Source: an uncultured archaeon (GTDB lineage: Archaea; Asgardarchaeota; Lokiarchaeia; Sigyniarchaeales; SOKP01). From it: 10,146 nucleotides of DNA. A program made the translations under genes and the position numbers. The stretch spans positions 1-10,146 of the forward strand of contig CAZGJX010000126.1 in the NCBI GenBank assembly GCA_964525635.1, written 5' to 3'. Of this stretch, positions 1 to 10,146 are shown in pieces; within the stretch, counting starts at the first letter, position 1; the number at the start of each line of letters is the position of its first letter. Below the pieces are notes generated by a model that saw only the letters and a list, made by a program, of their open reading frames with translations, had not been told where the DNA came from and made no database searches.

Positions 1-149
1 GAAATTTAAAAAAACCGCTATTTTATAAATGATCCTTCTCTTGTAAAATTAGCCCTAAATTTAGATAATTTTATTATATATGTTTTTATTAATTCCTCCA
101 CTTAAGAAAATTTGTTAAAAACAAATGTAATAAAATGTATCCTTCAAAT

Positions 150-1877
150 CTAAATCATACTTATATAATAATAATTGAAAACGTTATGTTCATCGGAATA
201 CATTAGACTATAAGTAAAATTATCCTTCCAATCATTATAGACATGTAGAATCGTCTTATTTGTTATGTAATAATAATTACCATTTCCAATATCATTTATT
301 ATTTGCGTTTTTAGCATATCGAGATCAGTTGAGTCCTGCATTTCCAAAAAAGTACATTTTTCAAAGAAAAAATAATCTCCCATAATCACAGCGTTTCGAA
401 CTCTTGCATCTTCTTTAGCTATGTGTGAAATTAATGTATCATTTTCACCTAAATTAGCATTAATAATGATATAGAATTTATCGGGACTTTGCCATCTATA
501 AATATTTGGAGCTTGAAGCTTTAATAAAAAATATGCGTATGGTATTATAGATAAAGAAAAGACTATCGTTAATGTAAAATAGATATATTTATATTTAACG
601 TGAAATTTATGGAATAAGAAATTAATTTGCCAAATCTTATTTTTTCTCTTTAAAAATTCTATAAAATCATTTATAAAAAGAATACATAAAGCAATAAAAG
701 ATATTAAAATAGTATCCCATCGTTCGAATGCGGACGGTTGATACAGAATAGAATTTACAGAATGAAATACAATTGAGAAAATAAAGACAAAATAGATCAA
801 TTTTCTTTTTTTAATTACCATAAAGAAGAAAATAAGGATAAATAGTATAAACGAAAAAAAGAAAGCTGTATGGAGAATTGAATAAGAAAATCCTAAAAAC
901 AACGTTGAAATTCCTGTAGCAATCAGATGAATATATCCAAGAAGATCTTCTCCAGAATAAAGGATGAAATATTGATGCTGTTCTGAGTAAAATCCTCGAG
1001 TATAGTTATGAAAGTTAAAATAATCATAGAAATTCCAGCCTAAAGCTGTAGTATACCAAATAATTACTAATAAGACGAATAAACCTGTAACAAAAATTAT
1101 CTTTAAAAGAATTAATACCTTTATTTTCAATGAAATTCCGGTGCGTACAAAATTCAGTGATGGAAGAATATATTCTTTTATTAAATTATAATTTTAGGAG
1201 AAATATTCTAAAATAAATCAATTTATGCATTTTTATCACTAACATTTGTACCTACCCGAAATTCCTTTTTTAAATAGTATTAGAAAAACCAGAAATCCCT
1301 GAAGTACAGAAGATAAATGAGTGCAAATAGCAAATCCTAATGATATACCCATTAAGATTTCATACACCAATTTCTTTTTTTTATTACTAGTCTCAGGGAG
1401 TTTTATATATTTGATTAAGAAAAATATAAATAGGCAATCAAAGACCATGTTTAGAATGTTGTTTTCCATTACGGTTGTTAAATACCAGAATCCAAAATTG
1501 AATAGGATTAACATTGTACCAAAAATAGAAAGTATTAATTTTCGAGTAAGAGAATAGAGAAGGTTAAAAACAATAACAATGATTACAGCTGAAGATAAGG
1601 AATATAACATTGCTGCTCCAAAAAAGGGGTCCCAAATTCCGCTAACAAAGAAATAAAGGTCTGTAAATACTTTTATAAACCATGGTGCCAACATAGAAGG
1701 AGAATATAAATAAATTTCACCTTCATCCAGTCGGGTTAACACATTAATCGTATCTATATCAACCAAGACGAAACTTTTAATGAAATAAAAGAAGTAAGTT
1801 AAGATAGAGAGAAATAAGGTTATATTTATTGCTAAAAGTCCCGGTCTATTGAGTTGATGTGTCATTATTTTATCCAA
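150..1877 (-). pseudogene. GT-C-fold (ArnT/PMT/DUF2723-like) multi-pass membrane glycosyltransferase, interrupted by a MITE; reconstructed ~533 aa
   Basis: ORFs 1239..1877 and 150..1130 are in the same frame. Deleting the 126-bp insertion (element plus one target copy) gives ...LFKKGIS-LKIKVLILL... without a stop. There are many hydrophobic helices, GT-C-like segments (FWYLTTVMENNILNMVF, GISLGFAICTHLSS, FERW) and a soluble C-terminal domain. The family assignment is by motif resemblance only. Confidence 0.75.
1140..1256. mobile_element. 117-bp non-autonomous MITE with GGT...ACC ends
   Basis: Left end GGTGCGTACAAAATTCAGTGAT (1140-1161) vs reverse complement of right end GGTAGGTACAAATGTTAGTGAT (1235-1256): 17/22 identical. 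Flanked by direct repeats tGAAATTCC (1131-1139) and cGAAATTCC (1257-1265). No transposase coding capacity. Confidence 0.88.
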
Positions 1878-1987
1878 ATTTTTTACTCTTTCTTAAGTTA
1901 GGGAAAGCCTCTTATAGCAATTATTAAAGTTTTTACCTAATTAAAATTTTTATATTTTTTCTTTTTTATTTTGTTATGTATACTCTA

Positions 1988-2035
1988 TTTTTGTCAGTAA
2001 ATGTGGATTTTAATTTTGTCACTTTTTGTCAGTAA
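1988..2035. repeat. Direct repeat TTTTTGTCAGTAA x2 plus partial TTTTGTCA; candidate transposase-binding sites of an IS end
   Basis: Perfect 13-bp copies at 1988-2000 and 2023-2035, a partial copy at 2014-2021, and a TGT at 1977-1979 just outside. Lies ~80-135 bp downstream of the transposase remnant. Confidence 0.55.
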
Positions 2036-2113
2036 CATCGTGTTTTTTCTTCTTATTTTGGGATTAATAATTACATTAAATAAAAAAAAATAATTAAGGA
2101 ATAAAAATAGATT

Positions 2114-2308
2114 TTATAGATTTAAAGTTTTTATTAGTATATCGTTTAGGTACACTAATAGATTCTGGCCCTGGTTTTTCTCTTGTACCTCTACGGTCTC
2201 AACACCTAATTTATAGTCTATTGAATACCATTTTCCCTTATATGAGATAGTCCCATTTTTTCTAATTCTCCTAGTTTTATTACTTTCTTTCTTGGATGTG
2301 AATAACAC
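2114..2308 (-). pseudogene. C-terminal fragment of an IS481/IS21-like transposase (Mu-transposase C-terminal-like beta domain)
   Basis: TRRIRKNGTISYKGKWYSI...LGVETVEV...LLVY matches the R.V...G.I...G..Y.V pattern of Mu-transposase C-terminal domains. No DDE core is present upstream; the frame is closed by the TAA at 2333-2335. Confidence 0.6.
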
Positions 2309-2332
2309 TTGATAAGAATGGGTTATTAATAT

Positions 2333-2887
2333 TTATATTGCCATAAGTAATTTCTCATAACTACATCTTGTTTGAATTTCCATAGATGTTCTTATGAATT
2401 TTCTAATAAATTTTGTGAGAGCTCTCTGGAATTTTTTGTATGAATCAAAAAATGTGTTATGGGTTACCTGTTTGCGTAAAAATTTCCAAAACCATTCCAT
2501 TGAATTCAGATCAGGAGAATAGGGGGGTAAATAAAGGAGTTCAAGCTTTTCTTCATTAGCTTTTAGAAAAAGTTGGAGTACTTTAGCTTGATGAATTCGA
2601 GCGTTGTCCAAGATCATAAGAATCTTTCCTGAATCCTTATATCTATAAAGAAGACCTTCAAGAAAATGTTGGAATTGCTCTGTTTTCAAAGTATCAGAAA
2701 ATGCCACGTGTACTCTTCCAGCTTTTGGGTCTACAGCACCAATGAGGTTTTGACGTAATCGACTACTCGATGTGAACACTTCTGGTTGCAGACCTTTTAA
2801 AGACCAGGTGCGCGTGATTGTTGGAGAAAATTGAACACTTGCCTCATCTTGAAATAACACTACATCGTCGGGTTTGAGAGAATCCAC
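2333..2887 (-). CDS. IS630 transposase OrfB (DDE catalytic domain), probably translated as a -1 frameshift fusion with OrfA
   Basis: FQDEASV, MILDNARIH and LPPYSPDLNSMEWFW motifs give an intact D-D-E triad. Confidence 0.92.
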   Translation of the reverse strand: MDSLKPDDVVLFQDEASVQFSPTITRTWSLKGLQPEVFTSSSRLRQNLIGAVDPKAGRVHVAFSDTLKTEQFQHFLEGLLYRYKDSGKILMILDNARIHQAKVLQLFLKANEEKLELLYLPPYSPDLNSMEWFWKFLRKQVTHNTFFDSYKKFQRALTKFIRKFIRTSMEIQTRCSYEKLLMAI

Positions 2888-3408
2888 TTTTTTTGGAATT
2901 GGTAGATGAATTTTACTTGTTGCTTCGGATCTGCTTTTTTAAAGCGATACTTTGGACGTTGTAGCGTAAATCCCAATTCATGAAGTAATCTATGAGCTTG
3001 CCGAGCTCCTAATTCTACGTCAAATTTCTTACTTATGTGAAATGCAACACTTTTTGCTTCCCAATTACTAAATTCATACCCCAATTCATGGGGGTGAGTA
3101 CACACATCATCTCGTAATATCACTTTTTGTTCTTTTGTAAGACGAGAGGCTCGTCCAGGAGGAAGAATGGGAACAATTGCATCTAAACCTCCTTTATTAA
3201 ACGCATGAAGCAAATTAAGTACTGTCCTCCTTGATCGTTTTATTATTTTTGCGACTTCAGTACAATTATTTCCTTCACAGAGTAAATAAAGAGCTTGATA
3301 TCGTTCTTTTAGCCGTAGATCTTCCTCTTTTCTATAATATTCGACCATTTCATCATGATTAGGTGATTTTCTCGTGATTTGAAGTGGTTTCATATGATAA
3401 AATATCAT
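2860..3408 (-). CDS. IS630 transposase OrfA (HTH and winged-HTH DNA-binding part)
   Basis: RYQALYL...EVAKIIKRSRRTV...GGLDAI...PGRASRLT...W...LLHELGFTLQRP is a typical IS630 N-terminus. Alternative ATG at 3393. Confidence 0.9.
   Translation of the reverse strand: MIFYHMKPLQITRKSPNHDEMVEYYRKEEDLRLKERYQALYLLCEGNNCTEVAKIIKRSRRTVLNLLHAFNKGGLDAIVPILPPGRASRLTKEQKVILRDDVCTHPHELGYEFSNWEAKSVAFHISKKFDVELGARQAHRLLHELGFTLQRPKYRFKKADPKQQVKFIYQFQKKWILSNPTM
2887..2893 (-). promoter_or_regulatory. -1 programmed frameshift heptamer A AAA AAG
   Basis: Minus strand reads TTC CAA AAA AAG TGG in the OrfA frame; a -1 shift gives AAA GTG GAT, the OrfB frame. Confidence 0.8.
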
Positions 3409-3541
3409 ATTGAATATTATATAATAGAATATTCTCTAGGTGATATGATCGAATAAATGAGAAAAAATCTATGTCATTATAAATAACTTCCATAATCCTT
3501 TTTAAAAAAGCTTTATTACCTTTTTATAATCTTTTTAAAGA

Positions 3542-3566
3542 AGAACTATGTAAATTATATAGTTCT
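3542..3566. promoter_or_regulatory. Palindromic candidate transcription-factor operator upstream of the ABC operon
   Basis: AGAACTAT (3542-3549) N9 ATAGTTCT (3559-3566): perfect 8-bp arms, with further TA/TA symmetry in the spacer. Confidence 0.35.
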
Positions 3567-3684
3567 ATATATAATATTTGTATTAATTTAATAAGTAAAA
3601 AACCTCTATAAACCTCAATACATAGAACAATATTTTATAAATTTTAAATAAAATAGATACTAAGTATTTAATATATCAACTTAT

Positions 3685-3786
3685 ATGAAAATAAAAATTA
3701 TTTTTATTGCAGTTTTAATTATAGGGATATTTGCAGGTATTTCTTACGTCTTATTGGATAATTATATCCGTTCATTTATTTCATAA
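3685..3786 (+). CDS. Putative 33-aa single-pass membrane peptide (below the ORF-track cutoff)
   Basis: ATG..TAA ORF MKIKIIFIAVLIIGIFAGISYVLLDNYIRSFIS, with a basic N-terminus then ~20 hydrophobic residues; ends 43 bp before the SBP gene on the same strand. Confidence 0.45.
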   Translation: MKIKIIFIAVLIIGIFAGISYVLLDNYIRSFIS

Positions 3787-3829
3787 TCTCAATTAAATTA
3801 TTCAAATAAAAAATATAGTTATTTTAACG

Positions 3830-4951
3830 ATGATTAAATCTCGTAAAATTAAAAAAAATAATAAACTAAAAATCGTAAGCTTTTTTATCTTAGGATTTTT
3901 TATTGGTATCATTTCAACTTATATTATTATAGGAAGTGAGGATTCCACACACATTACTATTATTTATAGTTCCGAAAAAGCTAGTTGGATAAGTGTAGCA
4001 TATAATGACTTTTTGGATGAGTGGGAAAAAAATCATCCCAATGATAAGATAACAATTGATCTACATCCTTATGGTTCGAGTGACTCTTTAATCAGTATTT
4101 TGAATGGTGAAATTTTTCCTACTATTTGGAGTCCAGCAAGCTCAATATGGATGCCCATATTAAATTCAAAATGGGCTGAATTAACGAAGAGTAAAACTCC
4201 GATTGTAAATATAAGCGAAGCTGTAAAAATAATTTATTCTCCAATTGTTATTGCTACATGGGAATCAATAAATCAAACATATAATATAAAAGGATTTTCA
4301 GACCTCTATAATTTAAATCTAAATCCTAATGTAAATTTAAAAATGGCTCATACAGATCCAAGATTATCTAATTCTGGATTTATGACGACTATTATGGCCC
4401 TCTCTACAGCTTCAGGTACACCTTCAGAAAATTTAACAATGAATGATCTTACAAATGTTATGAATCAAAACTGGTTAAAAGTTTTTGAATCAAGTGCTGT
4501 TATGTATGGAAAATCCACAGGTTTTCTTGCTACATATATGGAAGAGGGAGGCCCTAATACTTTAAGCATAGCTTTTCTCTATGAGAATTTAATTAAAGAT
4601 ATATATAATTCTGCTACTGGAGGTAAGATTATCGCTATCTATCCTGAAGAAGGAACATTATATAGTGATCATCCCTTTTGTATATTAAACTCCAATTGGA
4701 TCTCAGCAAAACAACGATATGTAGCAGAAGAGTTTCTTAAATTTCTTAAGGAAACTAGAACAGTAGAATCAGCTATGAAATATGGATTTAGACCTATTAA
4801 TTCATCAATTACCTTAGATCCCGAAGTATTTAATTATGAAAAAAATGGGATCGCATATAACATAACAGTTCCCGAATTAAACGCTCCAAAAGATGGAGAT
4901 GTATTATTGAGAATTCCGGATTTATGGTTATTATGTAAAGCTAACGGCTAA
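3830..4951 (+). CDS. Membrane-anchored ABC substrate-binding protein (PBP type II, SBP_bac_11-like; subfamily often fused to vWA)
   Basis: N-terminal basic stretch plus TM helix; motifs IIYSSEKASW, PTIWSPASSIW, SPIVIA, HTDPRLSNSG, STGFL, LYENLI, IYPEEGTLYSDHPF, YGFRP. First large gene of an ABC operon. Confidence 0.85.
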   Translation: MIKSRKIKKNNKLKIVSFFILGFFIGIISTYIIIGSEDSTHITIIYSSEKASWISVAYNDFLDEWEKNHPNDKITIDLHPYGSSDSLISILNGEIFPTIWSPASSIWMPILNSKWAELTKSKTPIVNISEAVKIIYSPIVIATWESINQTYNIKGFSDLYNLNLNPNVNLKMAHTDPRLSNSGFMTTIMALSTASGTPSENLTMNDLTNVMNQNWLKVFESSAVMYGKSTGFLATYMEEGGPNTLSIAFLYENLIKDIYNSATGGKIIAIYPEEGTLYSDHPFCILNSNWISAKQRYVAEEFLKFLKETRTVESAMKYGFRPINSSITLDPEVFNYEKNGIAYNITVPELNAPKDGDVLLRIPDLWLLCKANG

Positions 4952-4976
4952 AATATTATAAAAAAAAAGGATAAAA

Positions 4977-6638
4977 TTGAGTAAACAAGAAATTATTTTA
5001 GAACCATCCGAATTAGAAAAAGAAGCTAAATTATCCTTAGCTTTAAGAATAGATCGGTTTTTTTCAAAACCTTTATATAGGAAAGGTCTCGATGCAATAA
5101 CAATTATATTTTTTGTTATAATAGTAATTGGACCTGTTATATATATTTTTTTTAATATCTTCTTAAATATTCCATCTATAAATGAAGATATATTTAATGA
5201 TGAGTTAATAGGAGATTTACAATGGAATATTATTTTAAAATCTTTAGTAAATTCATTTTCCATTGCAGGATTAGCTGTAAGTATTGATATAATATTAGCT
5301 TTTCCTATATCCATAATATTGACACGATATAATTTTAAAGGCAAAAAATTATTAGATTCCCTAATTGACCTACCTTTAGCAGTTCCTACAGGTTCTCTTG
5401 GAATATCAGTATTATTATTCTGGGGTTTATTTGGTATTACACCTGGATATAATTTAGTATTATTTGGTCATATAATTTTTACATTCCCTTATATTGTCAG
5501 AAATATGAAAATTGTATTAGAAAAAGCTGATACTCTTTATGATGATGCGGCTAGAACTCTTGGAGCTCCTGGATTTACTGTTTTTAGAACTATAACTCTT
5601 CCATTAATGAAAGAAGGAATCATAGCAGGAGCAATCCTAGGTTTTACGCGAAGTCTAGGAGAAACAGGTGCAACTATTATTCTTTCTGGATTAATTGATA
5701 CAGCTCCTCTTGTAATTGTAGGATTTCGTAGACAATTAAAATTACCTTCAGCTTCATTCTTGGCTGGAATCATGATAGCAATTTCTTTAATATTATTATT
5801 TTCAGTAAAATTTTTTACAAGAAAAGTGGGATTTCCAGTTAAAAAAGTATGGCCGAAAATAGAAAAAAAATTAAGTAATAATTATTTACGCCATCTTAGA
5901 AATATATTAGCAATTATTTTTTTACTTCTTTTAATAATTATTCCATCATTTTATATTCTCTCTCAGATTTCAGGTCCAGAAATCTCGGAACAAATGTTTG
6001 CTGAGGATAATAAATGGGCTTTTTTATATATAGCTTTCATGAATTCCATTCAAATAGCAGGTTTGGCTGTTTTAATCAATCTTATATTCGGAATACCATT
6101 GGCCTTCATTATTGTACGACGAAAATGGGGGAGAGCAATTGCAATTTTAGATACTCTGCTCGATGTTCCAATAGCAATTCCTTCTGCTGCTCTAGGATTT
6201 ACAATATTTTTGTTTTGGGGGCCTCAAGGAATTAATTTATTTTACCCCGGATTTTTCATGATATTATTGGTACATATTACATTTACGTTTCCATATATGG
6301 TTAGACCTATTATTGGTGTTCTCGAAAGATCCAACAAAGGTGTAGAAGAAGCAGCACGTACACTCGGAGCTTCTAATTTAACAGTATTTAGAAAAATAAC
6401 TCTTCCTAATATTAAACAGGGTATTATTGCAGGTGGAATTATGGTATTTACCCGTTCTATTGGGGAAACGGGTGCAACTATTGTTGTGATGGGAGGTATT
6501 AGAACTATACCTGTTTTAATTGTAGATTGGGTTGAAGCTAGTGCTATACCAAGTGCTATATTTGCTAGTTTAATTGCTATTATTTTTTGTGCTATTCTAA
6601 TTATTTTATTAAGAACAACAAGAACAGGAGTTGTATAA
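4977..6638 (+). CDS. ABC importer permease with two fused BPD_transp_1 domains (ModB/CysT-CysW/WtpB/FbpB-like)
   Basis: Internal duplication: LIDLPLAVP/LLDVPIAIP, HIIFTFPY/HITFTFPY, DDAARTLGA/EEAARTLGA (EAA loops), RSLGETGATI/RSIGETGATI. TTG start with AAGGA upstream. Confidence 0.93.
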   Translation: MSKQEIILEPSELEKEAKLSLALRIDRFFSKPLYRKGLDAITIIFFVIIVIGPVIYIFFNIFLNIPSINEDIFNDELIGDLQWNIILKSLVNSFSIAGLAVSIDIILAFPISIILTRYNFKGKKLLDSLIDLPLAVPTGSLGISVLLFWGLFGITPGYNLVLFGHIIFTFPYIVRNMKIVLEKADTLYDDAARTLGAPGFTVFRTITLPLMKEGIIAGAILGFTRSLGETGATIILSGLIDTAPLVIVGFRRQLKLPSASFLAGIMIAISLILLFSVKFFTRKVGFPVKKVWPKIEKKLSNNYLRHLRNILAIIFLLLLIIIPSFYILSQISGPEISEQMFAEDNKWAFLYIAFMNSIQIAGLAVLINLIFGIPLAFIIVRRKWGRAIAILDTLLDVPIAIPSAALGFTIFLFWGPQGINLFYPGFFMILLVHITFTFPYMVRPIIGVLERSNKGVEEAARTLGASNLTVFRKITLPNIKQGIIAGGIMVFTRSIGETGATIVVMGGIRTIPVLIVDWVEASAIPSAIFASLIAIIFCAILIILLRTTRTGVV

Positions 6639-6640
6639 TT

Positions 6641-7786
6641 ATGCCAGCAATTGAATTAAAAAATATAACAAAAACATTTGAAGAAGGAAAAGTTTTAGCT
6701 GTTGATGATATATCTCTCAAGATTAATGAAGGAGATTATATATTTCTTCTTGGACCAAGTGGATGTGGTAAAACAACAACACTAAGAATGATTGCGGGAC
6801 TTGAAATACCTACGCAAGGAAGAGTGTTTATAGATGATAAAGACATCGAAGGAATTCCTCCTGAAGATAGAGATATGGGATTTATATTCCAACAGTTTGA
6901 AATATTCGAGAATATGACTATTTGGCAAAATGTAACTTTTGGTTTAGAGATGCGTGGTTATCCAGATAATTATATTATAAATAAGGCTGAAGAAACTTTA
7001 AAATTGGTAGGTTTGCTAGAATATGCAGATAACTATCCAAATATTTTTGGTGAACCTGGTTTGCAGAAGTTAGGAATTGCACGTGCAATTGCTGCAGGAG
7101 CAAAAATATTAATTATGGATGAACCTTTAGGATCGCTTGATCCAAAAGTTTCAAAAGTTTTCCGCCACGAATTTAGGAACTTGATTAAAGATTTAAGATT
7201 AACTGCTATACAAGTCACTCATAATCAGGAACAAGCTATGGCTGTCGCAGATAAGATAATTGTAATGAGAGCTGGTAAAATACTTCAAATGGGAACTCCT
7301 TATGAATTATATGAAAATCCTCAAAGTATTTTTGTTGCTAATTTTCTAGGTGAGACAAATTTTCTTCAGGGATTTGTTTTAAAATTATTTGAAGAAGAAA
7401 AAATGGAAGTATGGATAAGATTAGGTGGACCAAGAATAATATGCAATAATCCAAATAATAAATTTAAACTAGATGATAATATAATTATTGGATTTCGTTT
7501 TGAAGATGTATATATATTTCCAAAAGATTTTAATTTTGATAAAAGTCCACATGATTGGTCTCATATACAAATATTTTCTGCTAAATTAGAATCTTCTAAA
7601 TTTATTGGAGCAACGAAAAGATTTTATTTATCTTTAGAAAGTGGTGATAAATTCATTTCTATTAAACCTGGTAATTTTGAAGAAAATTACCAAATTGGTG
7701 ATGAATTAATAATTGGTATTCATAGAGGTGATGTCCATGTATTTGAATCTCCTAAAGATTTTTTACATGAAATATCCTTAATGTAA
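6641..7786 (+). CDS. ABC ATPase 1 (PotA/CysA/MalK-like with TOBE-type C-terminus), degenerate signature motif; 381 aa
   Basis: Start reassigned to ATG 6641 (AGGAG at 6626-6630, 2 bp after the permease stop). Walker A GPSGCGKT, Q-loop FQ, Walker B ILIMDE, H-loop VTHN; the signature reads FGEPG instead of LSGGQ. Confidence 0.93.
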   Translation: MPAIELKNITKTFEEGKVLAVDDISLKINEGDYIFLLGPSGCGKTTTLRMIAGLEIPTQGRVFIDDKDIEGIPPEDRDMGFIFQQFEIFENMTIWQNVTFGLEMRGYPDNYIINKAEETLKLVGLLEYADNYPNIFGEPGLQKLGIARAIAAGAKILIMDEPLGSLDPKVSKVFRHEFRNLIKDLRLTAIQVTHNQEQAMAVADKIIVMRAGKILQMGTPYELYENPQSIFVANFLGETNFLQGFVLKLFEEEKMEVWIRLGGPRIICNNPNNKFKLDDNIIIGFRFEDVYIFPKDFNFDKSPHDWSHIQIFSAKLESSKFIGATKRFYLSLESGDKFISIKPGNFEENYQIGDELIIGIHRGDVHVFESPKDFLHEISLM

Positions 7787-7803
7787 TTAAGTTGGTGAGA
7801 TAA

Positions 7804-9027
7804 TTGGTTAATATTAAATTAGAAAATATTTCAAAGTCATTCAATAAACAAACCGCTCTTGATAATATCTCTTTAGAAATTAAAGATAAAGAATATTTTA
7901 TAATTTTGGGTCCTACTGGTGTAGGAAAAACCACATTATTAAAGATAATCGCAGGTCTTATCAAACCAGATTCTGGTTTTGTTTTTTATGATGAAAAAGA
8001 TATGACAAAAAAATCCCCTGGAGAGAGAAATTTAGGTTTTATGTTTGAAAATTATGCATTATTTCCACATATGAATATTTATGATAATATCGCATATAGC
8101 GCTCGAGTTCATGCCCATGATCCAGTAAAAACTCATTCAGTTGTGGAACAAATTTTATTAATGACCCTTTTAACGGGGAGAAATGAAGCATTACCAGAAG
8201 AAATGAGTGGAGGGATGAAACAAAGGGTCGCTCTTTGCAGAGCTTTATTAAATTTAGAACAAACAAAATTATTAATTTTAGACGAGCCTTTAAAGGCTCT
8301 TGATGCAGGTTTAAGAATGAGTTTGAGGAATGAATTATTACAAATGGCAAAATCAAAACTTTTGGAATTAACAGTCATACATGTAACTAACGAGGAAGAA
8401 GAAGCAATGTTCCTTGCAGATAGAATTGCAATAATAAATCATGGAAAATTGATTCAAATAGGAACTCCCTATGAGATCTATTATCAACCAAAAACACTTT
8501 TTATAGCAAACTTTATGAGTGAAATAAATTATTTTGAAGGAATCTGTGTTAAAAATGAAAAAGTGCCTTGGGATATATATAAAAAATCAAAATATGGGGA
8601 TAAATTTTTTGCTAAAATCCAAAAATATTCAATGCCATTACCTATTGATATTGGATTAAATAATATCTTTGCTTCATATACTCAAAAAGAACTGTATGAT
8701 GAAATTAACCATGGAGATGAAGTAATGTTAGTTATAAGGGCAAATCATATGAAACTTCGACTTGGTAATCGAATAAATGAAAAACATAATGCTATAATTG
8801 GAAAGATCAAAAGACGTAAATATATGGGTATGTTTTATAGATTTGAAGTTATTATAAATATAAATGATCAAGATAAATTATTAGTTGCAACAATTCCTTC
8901 CACTTCTAAAATTCATGATACATTTGTAGAAGGAGTTGAGGTTACTATATATTTTCCAAAAGAATTGGGAATTATATTTAGACATCCTGGTGAGGATGCA
9001 ATTAGAGATGTATTAAAATTAGAATAA
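7804..9027 (+). CDS. ABC ATPase 2 (PotA/CysA/MalK-like with TOBE-type C-terminus), altered Q-loop and H-loop
   Basis: TTG start with GGTGA at 7794-7798. Walker A GPTGVGKT, signature MSGGM, Walker B LLILDE, Q-loop FE, H-loop VTNE. Confidence 0.93.
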   Translation: MVNIKLENISKSFNKQTALDNISLEIKDKEYFIILGPTGVGKTTLLKIIAGLIKPDSGFVFYDEKDMTKKSPGERNLGFMFENYALFPHMNIYDNIAYSARVHAHDPVKTHSVVEQILLMTLLTGRNEALPEEMSGGMKQRVALCRALLNLEQTKLLILDEPLKALDAGLRMSLRNELLQMAKSKLLELTVIHVTNEEEEAMFLADRIAIINHGKLIQIGTPYEIYYQPKTLFIANFMSEINYFEGICVKNEKVPWDIYKKSKYGDKFFAKIQKYSMPLPIDIGLNNIFASYTQKELYDEINHGDEVMLVIRANHMKLRLGNRINEKHNAIIGKIKRRKYMGMFYRFEVIININDQDKLLVATIPSTSKIHDTFVEGVEVTIYFPKELGIIFRHPGEDAIRDVLKLE

Positions 9028-9060
9028 ATTAAAATAAAAAACAAAAATAGGTAAATTTTG

Positions 9061-9744
9061 ATGAGTAACTTATTTGAGTGGTTTAAATCTCGAAATGAAG
9101 AAAGTGTAATTAATAAAACTTTAGTGCATATGCAAAAGGTATTGGAAACAGTAGTAGAGTTTGAAAAAGGATTATCTTTCCTAATTGAAGAAAGAAACAA
9201 AGAACTTGCTTTAAAAGTTTTTTCTCGCGTTAATACATTGGAGCATCAAGCTGATATAATAAGACGGAATATCCTTAATACGATTTCAAAAGTTGAACTT
9301 CCATCTAAAATACGTGAAAATCTAATGCATTTGGTGAAAAGGATTGATGATATTGCGAATGCTGCAAATGCAAGTGCAAGAATCTTTATATATATGAATC
9401 ATAATGATTTCTTTAACTTAGATGAGGATATACATCAAAAAATCTTAGAAATGATTAGAATTTCAGTAGAAACAGTAATAAAAGTAAAATATATGGTTAA
9501 TAAATTATTAATCGCAGAGGAAACAGAACTTCAAGAGATAGGGGAAAAAGTTAGTGAATTAGAGCATAAGTGTGATGAATTACAATTTAAAATAAATAGA
9601 ATGCTTGTATCAGACCATCCAGATATTAATCCTTTTAGCGCAATTGAAATTTATAATAGTATTTCAATAATAGAAGTAATTACCGATAATGCAGAAGATG
9701 TCGCTGATTATATAATAATGTTAATTCTTTCAAAAACATCTTAA
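9061..9744 (+). CDS. DUF47/TIGR00153 (PhoU-like) putative phosphate-transport regulator
   Basis: Two-fold repeat LEHQADIIRR...IDDIAN and LEHKCDELQ...ITDNAEDVAD, characteristic of DUF47/PhoU helical bundles. ATG at 9061 (TTG 9058 alternative). Confidence 0.88.
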   Translation: MSNLFEWFKSRNEESVINKTLVHMQKVLETVVEFEKGLSFLIEERNKELALKVFSRVNTLEHQADIIRRNILNTISKVELPSKIRENLMHLVKRIDDIANAANASARIFIYMNHNDFFNLDEDIHQKILEMIRISVETVIKVKYMVNKLLIAEETELQEIGEKVSELEHKCDELQFKINRMLVSDHPDINPFSAIEIYNSISIIEVITDNAEDVADYIIMLILSKTS

Positions 9745-9999
9745 TTACATATATTATATTAGGTTAAAAATATAGAGATTAAATCAAGTTAAGGATTCTA
9801 TTAACTTAAGCTATATTACAAATAATATTTTTACTCCAAAATTTTTTCGAATCATTTATATATATTTTGCTTTTTTTTTTATTAAAAATTTTTCTTTCTT
9901 TCTACGTTTATTAAGATATATTGGTTAATTTTTGTCAAAAGATCTTTTATTTATCTATTATATTTTTACTATTAGATTTACATTTTTAAGTGTTTAATG

Positions 10000-10146
10000 T
10001 TAAAAATCTGAATAAGATATATTATATATTTTATTTTTAGTGATATATTCACTATTGTTTATTTCGAAATTATTTATATCCAACTTTTTATTTACCGTTG
10101 CAAAAAATCTGGACATTATTGGACATCCAGCTTGAGGGCCAACAAC
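10000..10146 (-). CDS. Possible 3' end of a convergent gene running in from the right edge; product unknown
   Basis: 48 open codons VVGPQAGCPIMSRFFATVNKKLDINNFEINNSEYITKNKIYNISYSDF, ending in TAA at 10000-10002. GC content rises towards the window edge. Confidence 0.4.
   Translation of the reverse strand, partial: VVGPQAGCPIMSRFFATVNKKLDINNFEINNSEYITKNKIYNISYSDF

Follow-up and report, generated by a model that had tools for sequence, protein, structure and literature searches.

The DNA analysed here, hereafter the window, is a stretch of 10,146 nucleotides (positions 1 to 10,146, forward strand, of contig CAZGJX010000126.1) from an uncultured archaeon of the order Sigyniarchaeales (Asgardarchaeota; assembly GCA_964525635.1), and the subject of this analysis is a pair of adjacent ATPase genes that it carries, which belong to an ATP-binding cassette (ABC) importer. 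The window constitutes contig C126 of a 4.45-Mb genome with a GC content of ~28%. On its + strand lies a tight five-gene operon encoding, in this order, a substrate-binding protein (SBP), a fused permease, two ATPases, each with a nucleotide-binding domain (NBD1 and NBD2), and a PhoU_div protein; the five genes are kept together in orthologous loci. The nearest relatives of both ATPases are found in records labelled Lokiarchaeota or Promethearchaeota. An alternative genetic code (TGA read as Trp) was considered given the low GC content and was rejected, the open reading frames (ORFs) being identical under tables 4 and 11. The genes and domains of the operon are as follows.

3830..4951, + strand: substrate-binding protein with an N-terminal membrane anchor, operon gene 1 (Pfam SBP_bac_11, 6e-16)
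4977..6638, + strand: fused two-domain permease, 553 aa (Pfam BPD_transp_1 in two stretches)
5541-5636 and 6345-6440, + strand: EAA coupling loops of the permease, one per half
6641..7786, + strand: NBD1 ATPase, 381 aa, ABC_tran plus TOBE_2; catalytic motifs intact, signature lost
7804..9027, + strand: NBD2 ATPase, 407 aa, ABC_tran plus a weak TOBE_2; signature intact, Q- and H-loops altered
9058..9744, + strand: PhoU_div (DUF47) protein, last gene of the operon (Pfam PhoU_div, 2.8e-25)

Both ATPases are of the PotA/CysA/FbpC/MalK class, i.e. an ABC_tran domain followed by a C-terminal TOBE-type domain, and their best matches to solved TOBE-type members were at 1e-62 to 1e-64. With Pfam, ABC_tran was detected at 8e-26 in NBD1 and 7e-29 in NBD2, and TOBE_2 at 4.8e-5 (above the cut-off) and 2.9e-3 (below the cut-off), respectively. 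Neither protein reached the cut-off of the NCBIfam equivalogs PhnT2, PotA, CysA, WtpC, FbpC, UgpC, MalK, or PstB; the top-scoring equivalog, PhnT2, gave 283 and 284 bits where 458 would be required, and PstB gave 130 and 117 bits where 343 would be required. NBD1 begins 2 nt past the permease stop, with AGGAG upstream and an N-terminus (MPxIEL) common to its orthologues, and NBD2 begins at a TTG preceded by GGTGAG. Over the NBD core the two share 37% identity. They are each other's nearest paralogue within their own genome, and a paralogue search of that genome revealed no further TOBE-type paralogue near either of them.

For assignment of motif positions, translated NBD1 and NBD2 were aligned to the solved canonical ATPases 1v43 and 2it1. 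Each of the motif coordinates given for the two genes in an initial annotation, made from the letters of the window, proved correct in this alignment.

6752..6775, + strand: NBD1 Walker A, GPSGCGKT, with K44 (K44 in 54/54 aligned sequences)
6890..6892, + strand: NBD1 Q-loop Gln84 (54/54 aligned sequences; 120/120 close homologues)
7046..7060, + strand: NBD1 degenerate signature FGEPG (F136-G140), replacing LSGGQ (aligned to LSGGQ of 1v43)
7106..7123, + strand: NBD1 Walker B, ILIMDE (D160 and catalytic E161)
7220..7222, + strand: NBD1 H-loop His194 (54/54 aligned sequences; 120/120 close homologues)
7909..7932, + strand: NBD2 Walker A, GPTGVGKT, kept (K42 in 57/57)
8047..8049, + strand: NBD2 Q-loop Glu82, replacing Gln (against 2it1; Glu in 120/120 close homologues and in 57/57 sequences of alignment A2)
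8203..8217, + strand: NBD2 signature MSGGM (M134-M138), SGG intact (SGG in 42/42 pairs)
8269..8286, + strand: NBD2 Walker B, LLILDE (D160 and E161), kept (certain other lineages have Asp or Gln for E161)
8389..8391, + strand: NBD2 H-loop Asn196, replacing His (against His of 2it1; Asn in 120/120 close homologues)

Residues that hold the nucleotide are largely retained in NBD2-type proteins: in addition to K42, D160 was present in 57/57 sequences and a Phe or Tyr in the A-loop in 46/57, and the D-loop was also kept.

The NBDs of ABC transporters dimerize head-to-tail, each ATP site being formed by the Walker, Q-loop, and H-loop motifs of one NBD and the signature of the other. When the motifs were mapped by sequence onto this geometry, site 1 (K44, Q84, E161, and H194 of NBD1 with the SGG of NBD2) was fully consensus, and every altered motif fell into site 2 (Walker A, Walker B, E82, and N196 of NBD2 with the FGEPG of NBD1). 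Only the pairing of NBD1 with NBD2 yields a consensus site, and for this reason, together with the adjacency and co-divergence of the two genes, we infer that they would associate physically as a heterodimer. It is very improbable that they do not pair, whether as separate homodimers alternating on the permease or with NBD2 acting as a soluble regulator rather than a motor subunit. The NBDs of this ABC class are usually homodimers, as such a scheme would have it, but an NBD1 homodimer would have both sites without a signature and an NBD2 homodimer would have both without the Q-loop Gln and the switch His. Moreover, at every locus the two genes lie side by side, almost touching, and have diverged in step, and the fused permease is asymmetric as well, its two coupling loops being different.

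Conservation of the replacements was then examined among cluster representatives of close homologues. For NBD2 (representatives at least 66% identical), Glu in the Q-loop and Asn in the H-loop were each found in 120/120; for NBD1 (at least 72% identical), the signature read F[GA]xPG in 120/120, of which 110 had FGNPG, and the same sequences also kept Q, DE, and H. Within the order of the window, a further 16 adjacent NBD1 and NBD2 pairs from four GTDB families were scored. All 16 NBD1s carried a non-consensus signature (FGxPG, WGNGD, or L[SN]TPE), and all 16 NBD2s carried Glu in the Q-loop and Asn in the H-loop, with the most distant family showing in addition a Walker B change from DE to DD and a Walker A of GETGAGKT in NBD2. 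As the pattern is invariant in both sets of 120 homologues and in all orthologous pairs checked, it is not a chance feature of one genome, and the near-invariance of E82, N196, and the FGxPG-type signature indicates that the replacements are themselves under constraint.

The ratio of nonsynonymous to synonymous substitution rates (dN/dS), a check proposed in the initial annotation, was calculated against the three nearest genomes by NG86 and came to 0.06-0.12 for NBD1 and 0.10-0.16 for NBD2, values that are rough, with dS at or above 1 and near saturation. Purifying selection acts on both ATPase genes. That the deviations reflect a redundant duplicate decaying in one lineage, i.e. a dying gene, is scarcely credible in the face of intact reading frames, replacement residues that are invariant in the 120 + 120 homologues and the 42 pairs described below, and a dN/dS of ~0.1-0.15. 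The earlier argument for selection rather than decay is thus upheld. Close homologues with canonical motifs, the outcome that had been named as speaking against it, were not encountered; the defects are conserved throughout the order and, in varied form, throughout the phylum.

Two loci were unusual. One (L044, G033:C1) contains an NBD1 orthologue with no detectable NBD2 or PhoU_div behind it and a partial binding-protein match; in the other (L045, G026:C86), NBD1 is interrupted, residues 78-158 being missing, with X in the translation. Either could represent local loss or an assembly problem.

To extend the comparison beyond the order, 201 genomes of the phylum were searched, and 40 further loci plus four public contigs labelled Heimdall-, Hel-, Thor-, and Bathyarchaeota were retrieved. 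In total, 42 tandem NBD pairs could be scored (41 fetched loci and the window), mostly from Asgard archaea with one Bathyarchaeia contig; trees were built with FastTree, and the tree of the 42 pairs was used for parsimony counts of change. Single-ATPase systems from the same genomes, with another permease, served as an internal alignment control and were fully canonical (LSGGQQQR, FQNY, and VTHDQ).

The pairs fall into two groups. Group A, with the gene order SBP, permease, NBD1-type, NBD2-type, comprises 33 pairs from at least 12 GTDB families plus the labelled contigs. In this group SGG is never present in the subunit with the GPSGCGKTT-type Walker A (LSAPE/D, LNTPE, VAAAD, FGxPG, or WGNGD instead), and the Q-loop Gln is never present in the subunit with the GPTGxGKT-type Walker A (Glu in 31, Ala in 2). 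Additional lineage-specific losses were observed, all of them in the GPTGxGKT-type subunit: the H-loop His is changed to Asn or, in the Helarchaeota contig, to Gln; the Walker B Glu is changed to Asp in two separate clades and to Gln in two separate genomes; and the Walker A Lys is lost once. Group B has the order permease, GPTG-type, GPSGCGKTT-type, often with PhoU_div next, and is represented by 9 scored pairs (one of them the Bathyarchaeota contig) and two further metagenome contigs; relatives with other group-B-like signatures are labelled Nitrososphaeria or Thermoproteota. Both sites are near-consensus in group B, and its only deviations lie in the signature of the GPSGCGKTT-type subunit (LSGGA, LSRGA, LPAGT, and MSSGE).

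Across the 42 pairs, SGG was missing from NBD1 whenever the Q-loop Gln was missing from NBD2, and only then (33 both lost, 9 both kept). The initial annotation had proposed to test whether the signature loss always accompanies the Q-loop and H-loop changes of NBD2; this was so for the Q-loop Gln, and the H-loop position is His, Asn, or Gln in other Asgard lineages. No change was found at the key positions of site 1 (K, Q, E, and H of the NBD1-type and SGG of the NBD2-type subunit) over all 42 pairs, in comparison with at least 14 parsimony changes at the five key positions of site 2, so that all changes at these positions segregate into one site. In the trees, the signature-lost NBD1-type sequences form one clade (support 0.985) and all of the NBD2-type sequences another (support 0.83), and the main groupings are shared between the two subtrees, as would be expected of co-diverging partners.

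The most eroded NBD2-type subunits came from two loci, L098 (G192:C101, 5825-6970) and L118 (G143:C7, 8006-9103). The former reads GPTGAGPSE, with no Walker A Lys, and LDQP, in which the catalytic Glu is replaced by Gln; the latter reads LDQP and LTNST. Both operons are intact, and in each the partner subunit is fully consensus.

An arrangement in which both composite sites hydrolyse ATP, with E82, N196, and FGxPG as a non-canonical but active set of residues and two ATP consumed per cycle as in a homodimeric importer, is unlikely. It could draw on the Walker A, Walker B Asp, and Glu161 that NBD2 keeps in the lineage of the window, and on the strong conservation of the replacements (E82 in 57/57; FGNPG in 110/120), which bespeaks constraint and not free drift. 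Elsewhere, however, site 2 has lost the catalytic Glu (to Asp at least twice and to Gln twice) and, once, the Walker A Lys; such losses are confined to site 2, the pattern to be expected if hydrolysis is dispensable there. The signature Ser/Gly and the switch His are also reportedly required for hydrolysis in those ABC ATPases that have been studied, as with HlyB H662 and MalK H192.

Judged from the sequences, the importer probably operates with an obligate NBD1/NBD2 heterodimer that has one catalytic site, the other site binding ATP but hydrolysing it poorly. NBD1 and NBD2 would be old, co-diverging paralogues assembled head-to-tail on the asymmetric permease. Established ABC enzymology suggests that site 1 would hydrolyse ATP and power transport. 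Site 2 lacks the Q-loop Gln, the switch His, and an opposing signature, and with them the residues that place the attacking water and the γ-phosphate, so that ATP would most likely be bound there and turned over slowly or not at all, like at the degenerate sites of TM287/288, TAP1/2, and CFTR. That several lineages went on to lose the catalytic Glu agrees with hydrolysis being dispensable at this site. Its remaining function may be that of a stable dimer contact or of a regulatory nucleotide site. For a type I importer a single active site can be enough, as in the histidine permease HisP2MQJ (cited in PMC3971661).

Several points weigh against this scheme. In the lineage of the window NBD2 keeps the catalytic Glu161, and the Glu in its Q-loop could still coordinate Mg2+, which might leave some residual hydrolysis at site 2. 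The loss of the NBD2 Walker A Lys in the L098 lineage means that ATP binding at site 2 is not universal. MalFGK2 is said to need both of its sites, and a type I importer cannot in general be assumed to run on one site. The 42/42 concordance may stem from a single ancestral event or a handful of them, and since the kin compared are not independent, the repeated later damage, always at the same site, is the stronger argument. The trees were made with FastTree only and have weakly supported deep nodes, and no conclusion on rooting or donor was drawn from them.

The gene that follows the ATPase pair was also followed across loci. PhoU_div adjoins the pair, directly after NBD2, in 15 of the 16 complete order-level pairs, and in the remaining one it is found upstream of the SBP gene; it also follows NBD2 in the locus with the interrupted NBD1. 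It recurs in Heimdall-type loci, in group B (including the Bathyarchaeota contig), in many Asgard loci, and in Thermoproteota-type loci; in total, it was recorded in the two-ATPase operons of the window (9058-9744) and of loci L028-L043, L046, L048, L102-L107, L124, and L125. In a Thorarchaeota locus (L049), a MazE-PhoU gene stands upstream in its place. The usual partner of DUF47 proteins is a Pit-type phosphate permease, and a link to an ABC importer is unusual. By analogy with pstB-phoU, PhoU_div may modulate the ATPases. A complex prediction with NBD1 (1-375), NBD2 (1-395), and PhoU_div, in which only PhoU_div was scored, gave 0.56, compared with 0.55 when an unrelated protein was supplied in place of NBD2.

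The SBP gene is conserved upstream of the permease in orthologous loci, and the fused permease is present in all of them. By NCBIfam the permease is CysT/ModB/WtpB-like, scoring under all equivalog cut-offs except that of ModB when the two halves are summed. No sequence match to the binding protein was found among solved structures. Its AlphaFold2 model (pLDDT 93.7) was nearest in fold to sulfate-, sugar-phosphate-, iron- (FbpA), and polyamine-binding (PotF) proteins, with TM values of 0.57-0.68 and 11-16% identity, and its strongly conserved motifs are HTDPRLSNSG, GKSTG, YPxEGxLxSDHPF, and GFRP. Because the fold matches spread over several binder types at such low identity, no substrate was called; a reasonable, if weakly founded, guess from the binding-protein fold and the PhoU-type neighbour would be an oxyanion or a phosphorylated solute.

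The possibility that the operon stands in for a missing phosphate importer was considered and rejected, the genome having both a pst operon and Pit. Contig C152 (L053) of the same genome carries, at 980-5640, pstS, a fused pstC-pstA permease (776 aa), pstB, and phoU. The seeming truncation of this pstB is a run of N, after which the C-terminal part resumes in frame. Contig C10 carries Pit with a PhoU_div of its own.

Outside the operon, an IS630-family transposase was observed just upstream on the - strand as two overlapping ORFs (2333-3408), with helix-turn-helix domains at 2860-3408 and a DDE_3 domain at 2333-2887. Its GC content is 0.33-0.36 compared with ~0.25 in the surroundings, and an insertion sequence that is either frameshifted or expressed through a frameshift could account for it. 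Two adjoining membrane-protein ORFs lie on the same strand at 150-1130 and 1239-1877, the second with a weak PMT (dolichyl-phosphate-mannose transferase) match.

Pairs of one consensus and one degenerate site have been described as a frequent feature of ABC exporters (PMC3971661, PMC7756269). As in TM287/288, TAP1/2, BmrCD, PatAB, and MsRv1273c/72c, and in the fused CFTR and MRP1, two different NBDs here give one site of each kind, and catalytic-side changes of one NBD, such as that of the switch His, meet the signature changes of the other in a single site. The change of the Walker B Glu to Asp reported for TM287/288 (PMC3971661) likewise occurs in some lineages of the importer family. Those exporters, however, have type IV/V folds and are built from half-transporters in which a transmembrane domain (TMD) is fused to an NBD, whereas the system described here is a type I importer with separate TOBE-type ATPases and a fused permease. 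Also unlike in the exporters, the constant change is that of the Q-loop Gln to Glu, and the catalytic Glu is kept in the lineage of the window.

In domain layout and in the logic of its operon, where a binding protein accompanies a CysT/ModB-like permease, the system resembles the PotA/CysA/FbpC/WtpC/MalK class (1v43, 2it1, 8y5f, and 3d31). Members of that class, however, are homodimers with two identical consensus sites, in contrast to the two 37%-identical paralogues with complementary defects found here. NrtBCD/CmpBCD is also a type I importer with two different NBD polypeptides (NrtC and NrtD; PDB 8wm7 and 9u9z), which form a pseudosymmetric dimer with conserved motifs in both NBDs and two ATP-Mg bound symmetrically (PMC10945777). 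The asymmetry of NrtBCD stems from an extra regulatory domain of NrtC and not from a degenerate site, and its TMDs are two identical NrtB subunits. PstSCAB-PhoU and the operon agree in gene order, the ATPase gene(s) being followed immediately by one of PhoU type, and in having a permease that is fused or paired, but here the binding protein is of the SBP_bac_11 and not the PstS type, the TOBE ATPases score far under the PstB cut-off, and the last gene encodes PhoU_div (DUF47) and not PhoU. Fused tandem NBDs of the CUT2 type are found in MglA and XylG as well as in RbsA and NupO. For the latter two, a degenerate site in an importer has already been documented (PMC11466899), one of the two ATP sites being degenerate by sequence as in the present family; RbsA and NupO are single polypeptides assigned to type II in that work and have lost Walker A/B residues, unlike the separate TOBE-type subunits with other substitutions described here. 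The exporter-like arrangement put forward in the initial annotation is sustained as a likeness; its contrast with homodimeric importers has to be qualified by RbsA/NupO (PMC11466899) and NrtC/NrtD (PMC10945777). A search of full-text papers, among which subscription journals are poorly covered, found no consensus/degenerate pair described for TOBE-type importers, so that absence is not proven. The principle is already known; what is new here is its form in a TOBE-type type I importer.

A broader scenario is offered tentatively. The importer with two ATPases, a fused permease, and PhoU_div might be an archaeal family, spanning Asgard archaea and Thermoproteota, in which heterodimeric NBDs arose first and one site then decayed stepwise and repeatedly; that site, perhaps together with PhoU_div, might serve as a nucleotide-sensing or regulator-docking switch that gates (oxy)anion uptake.

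Consensus and degenerate ATP sites are a central theme for ABC exporters such as TAP, CFTR, MRP1, and TM287/288, and the importer family described here shows the same design. The principle itself not being new, the gain lies in breadth and in a good model system, namely a simple prokaryotic one with separate soluble ATPase subunits in which the purpose of a degenerate site can be asked. The results also improve the annotation of a transporter found widely in Asgard archaea, whose label at present is only that of an "Fe3+/spermidine/putrescine-type ATPase." The family offers a natural series of site erosion, from SGG kept, through the Q-loop change, loss of the His, and loss of the catalytic Glu, to loss of the Walker A Lys, which could show to what extent a type I importer requires its second site. 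Should site 2 turn out to be a regulatory switch, the family would be the first one defined among type I importers to have a regulatory ATP site built in.

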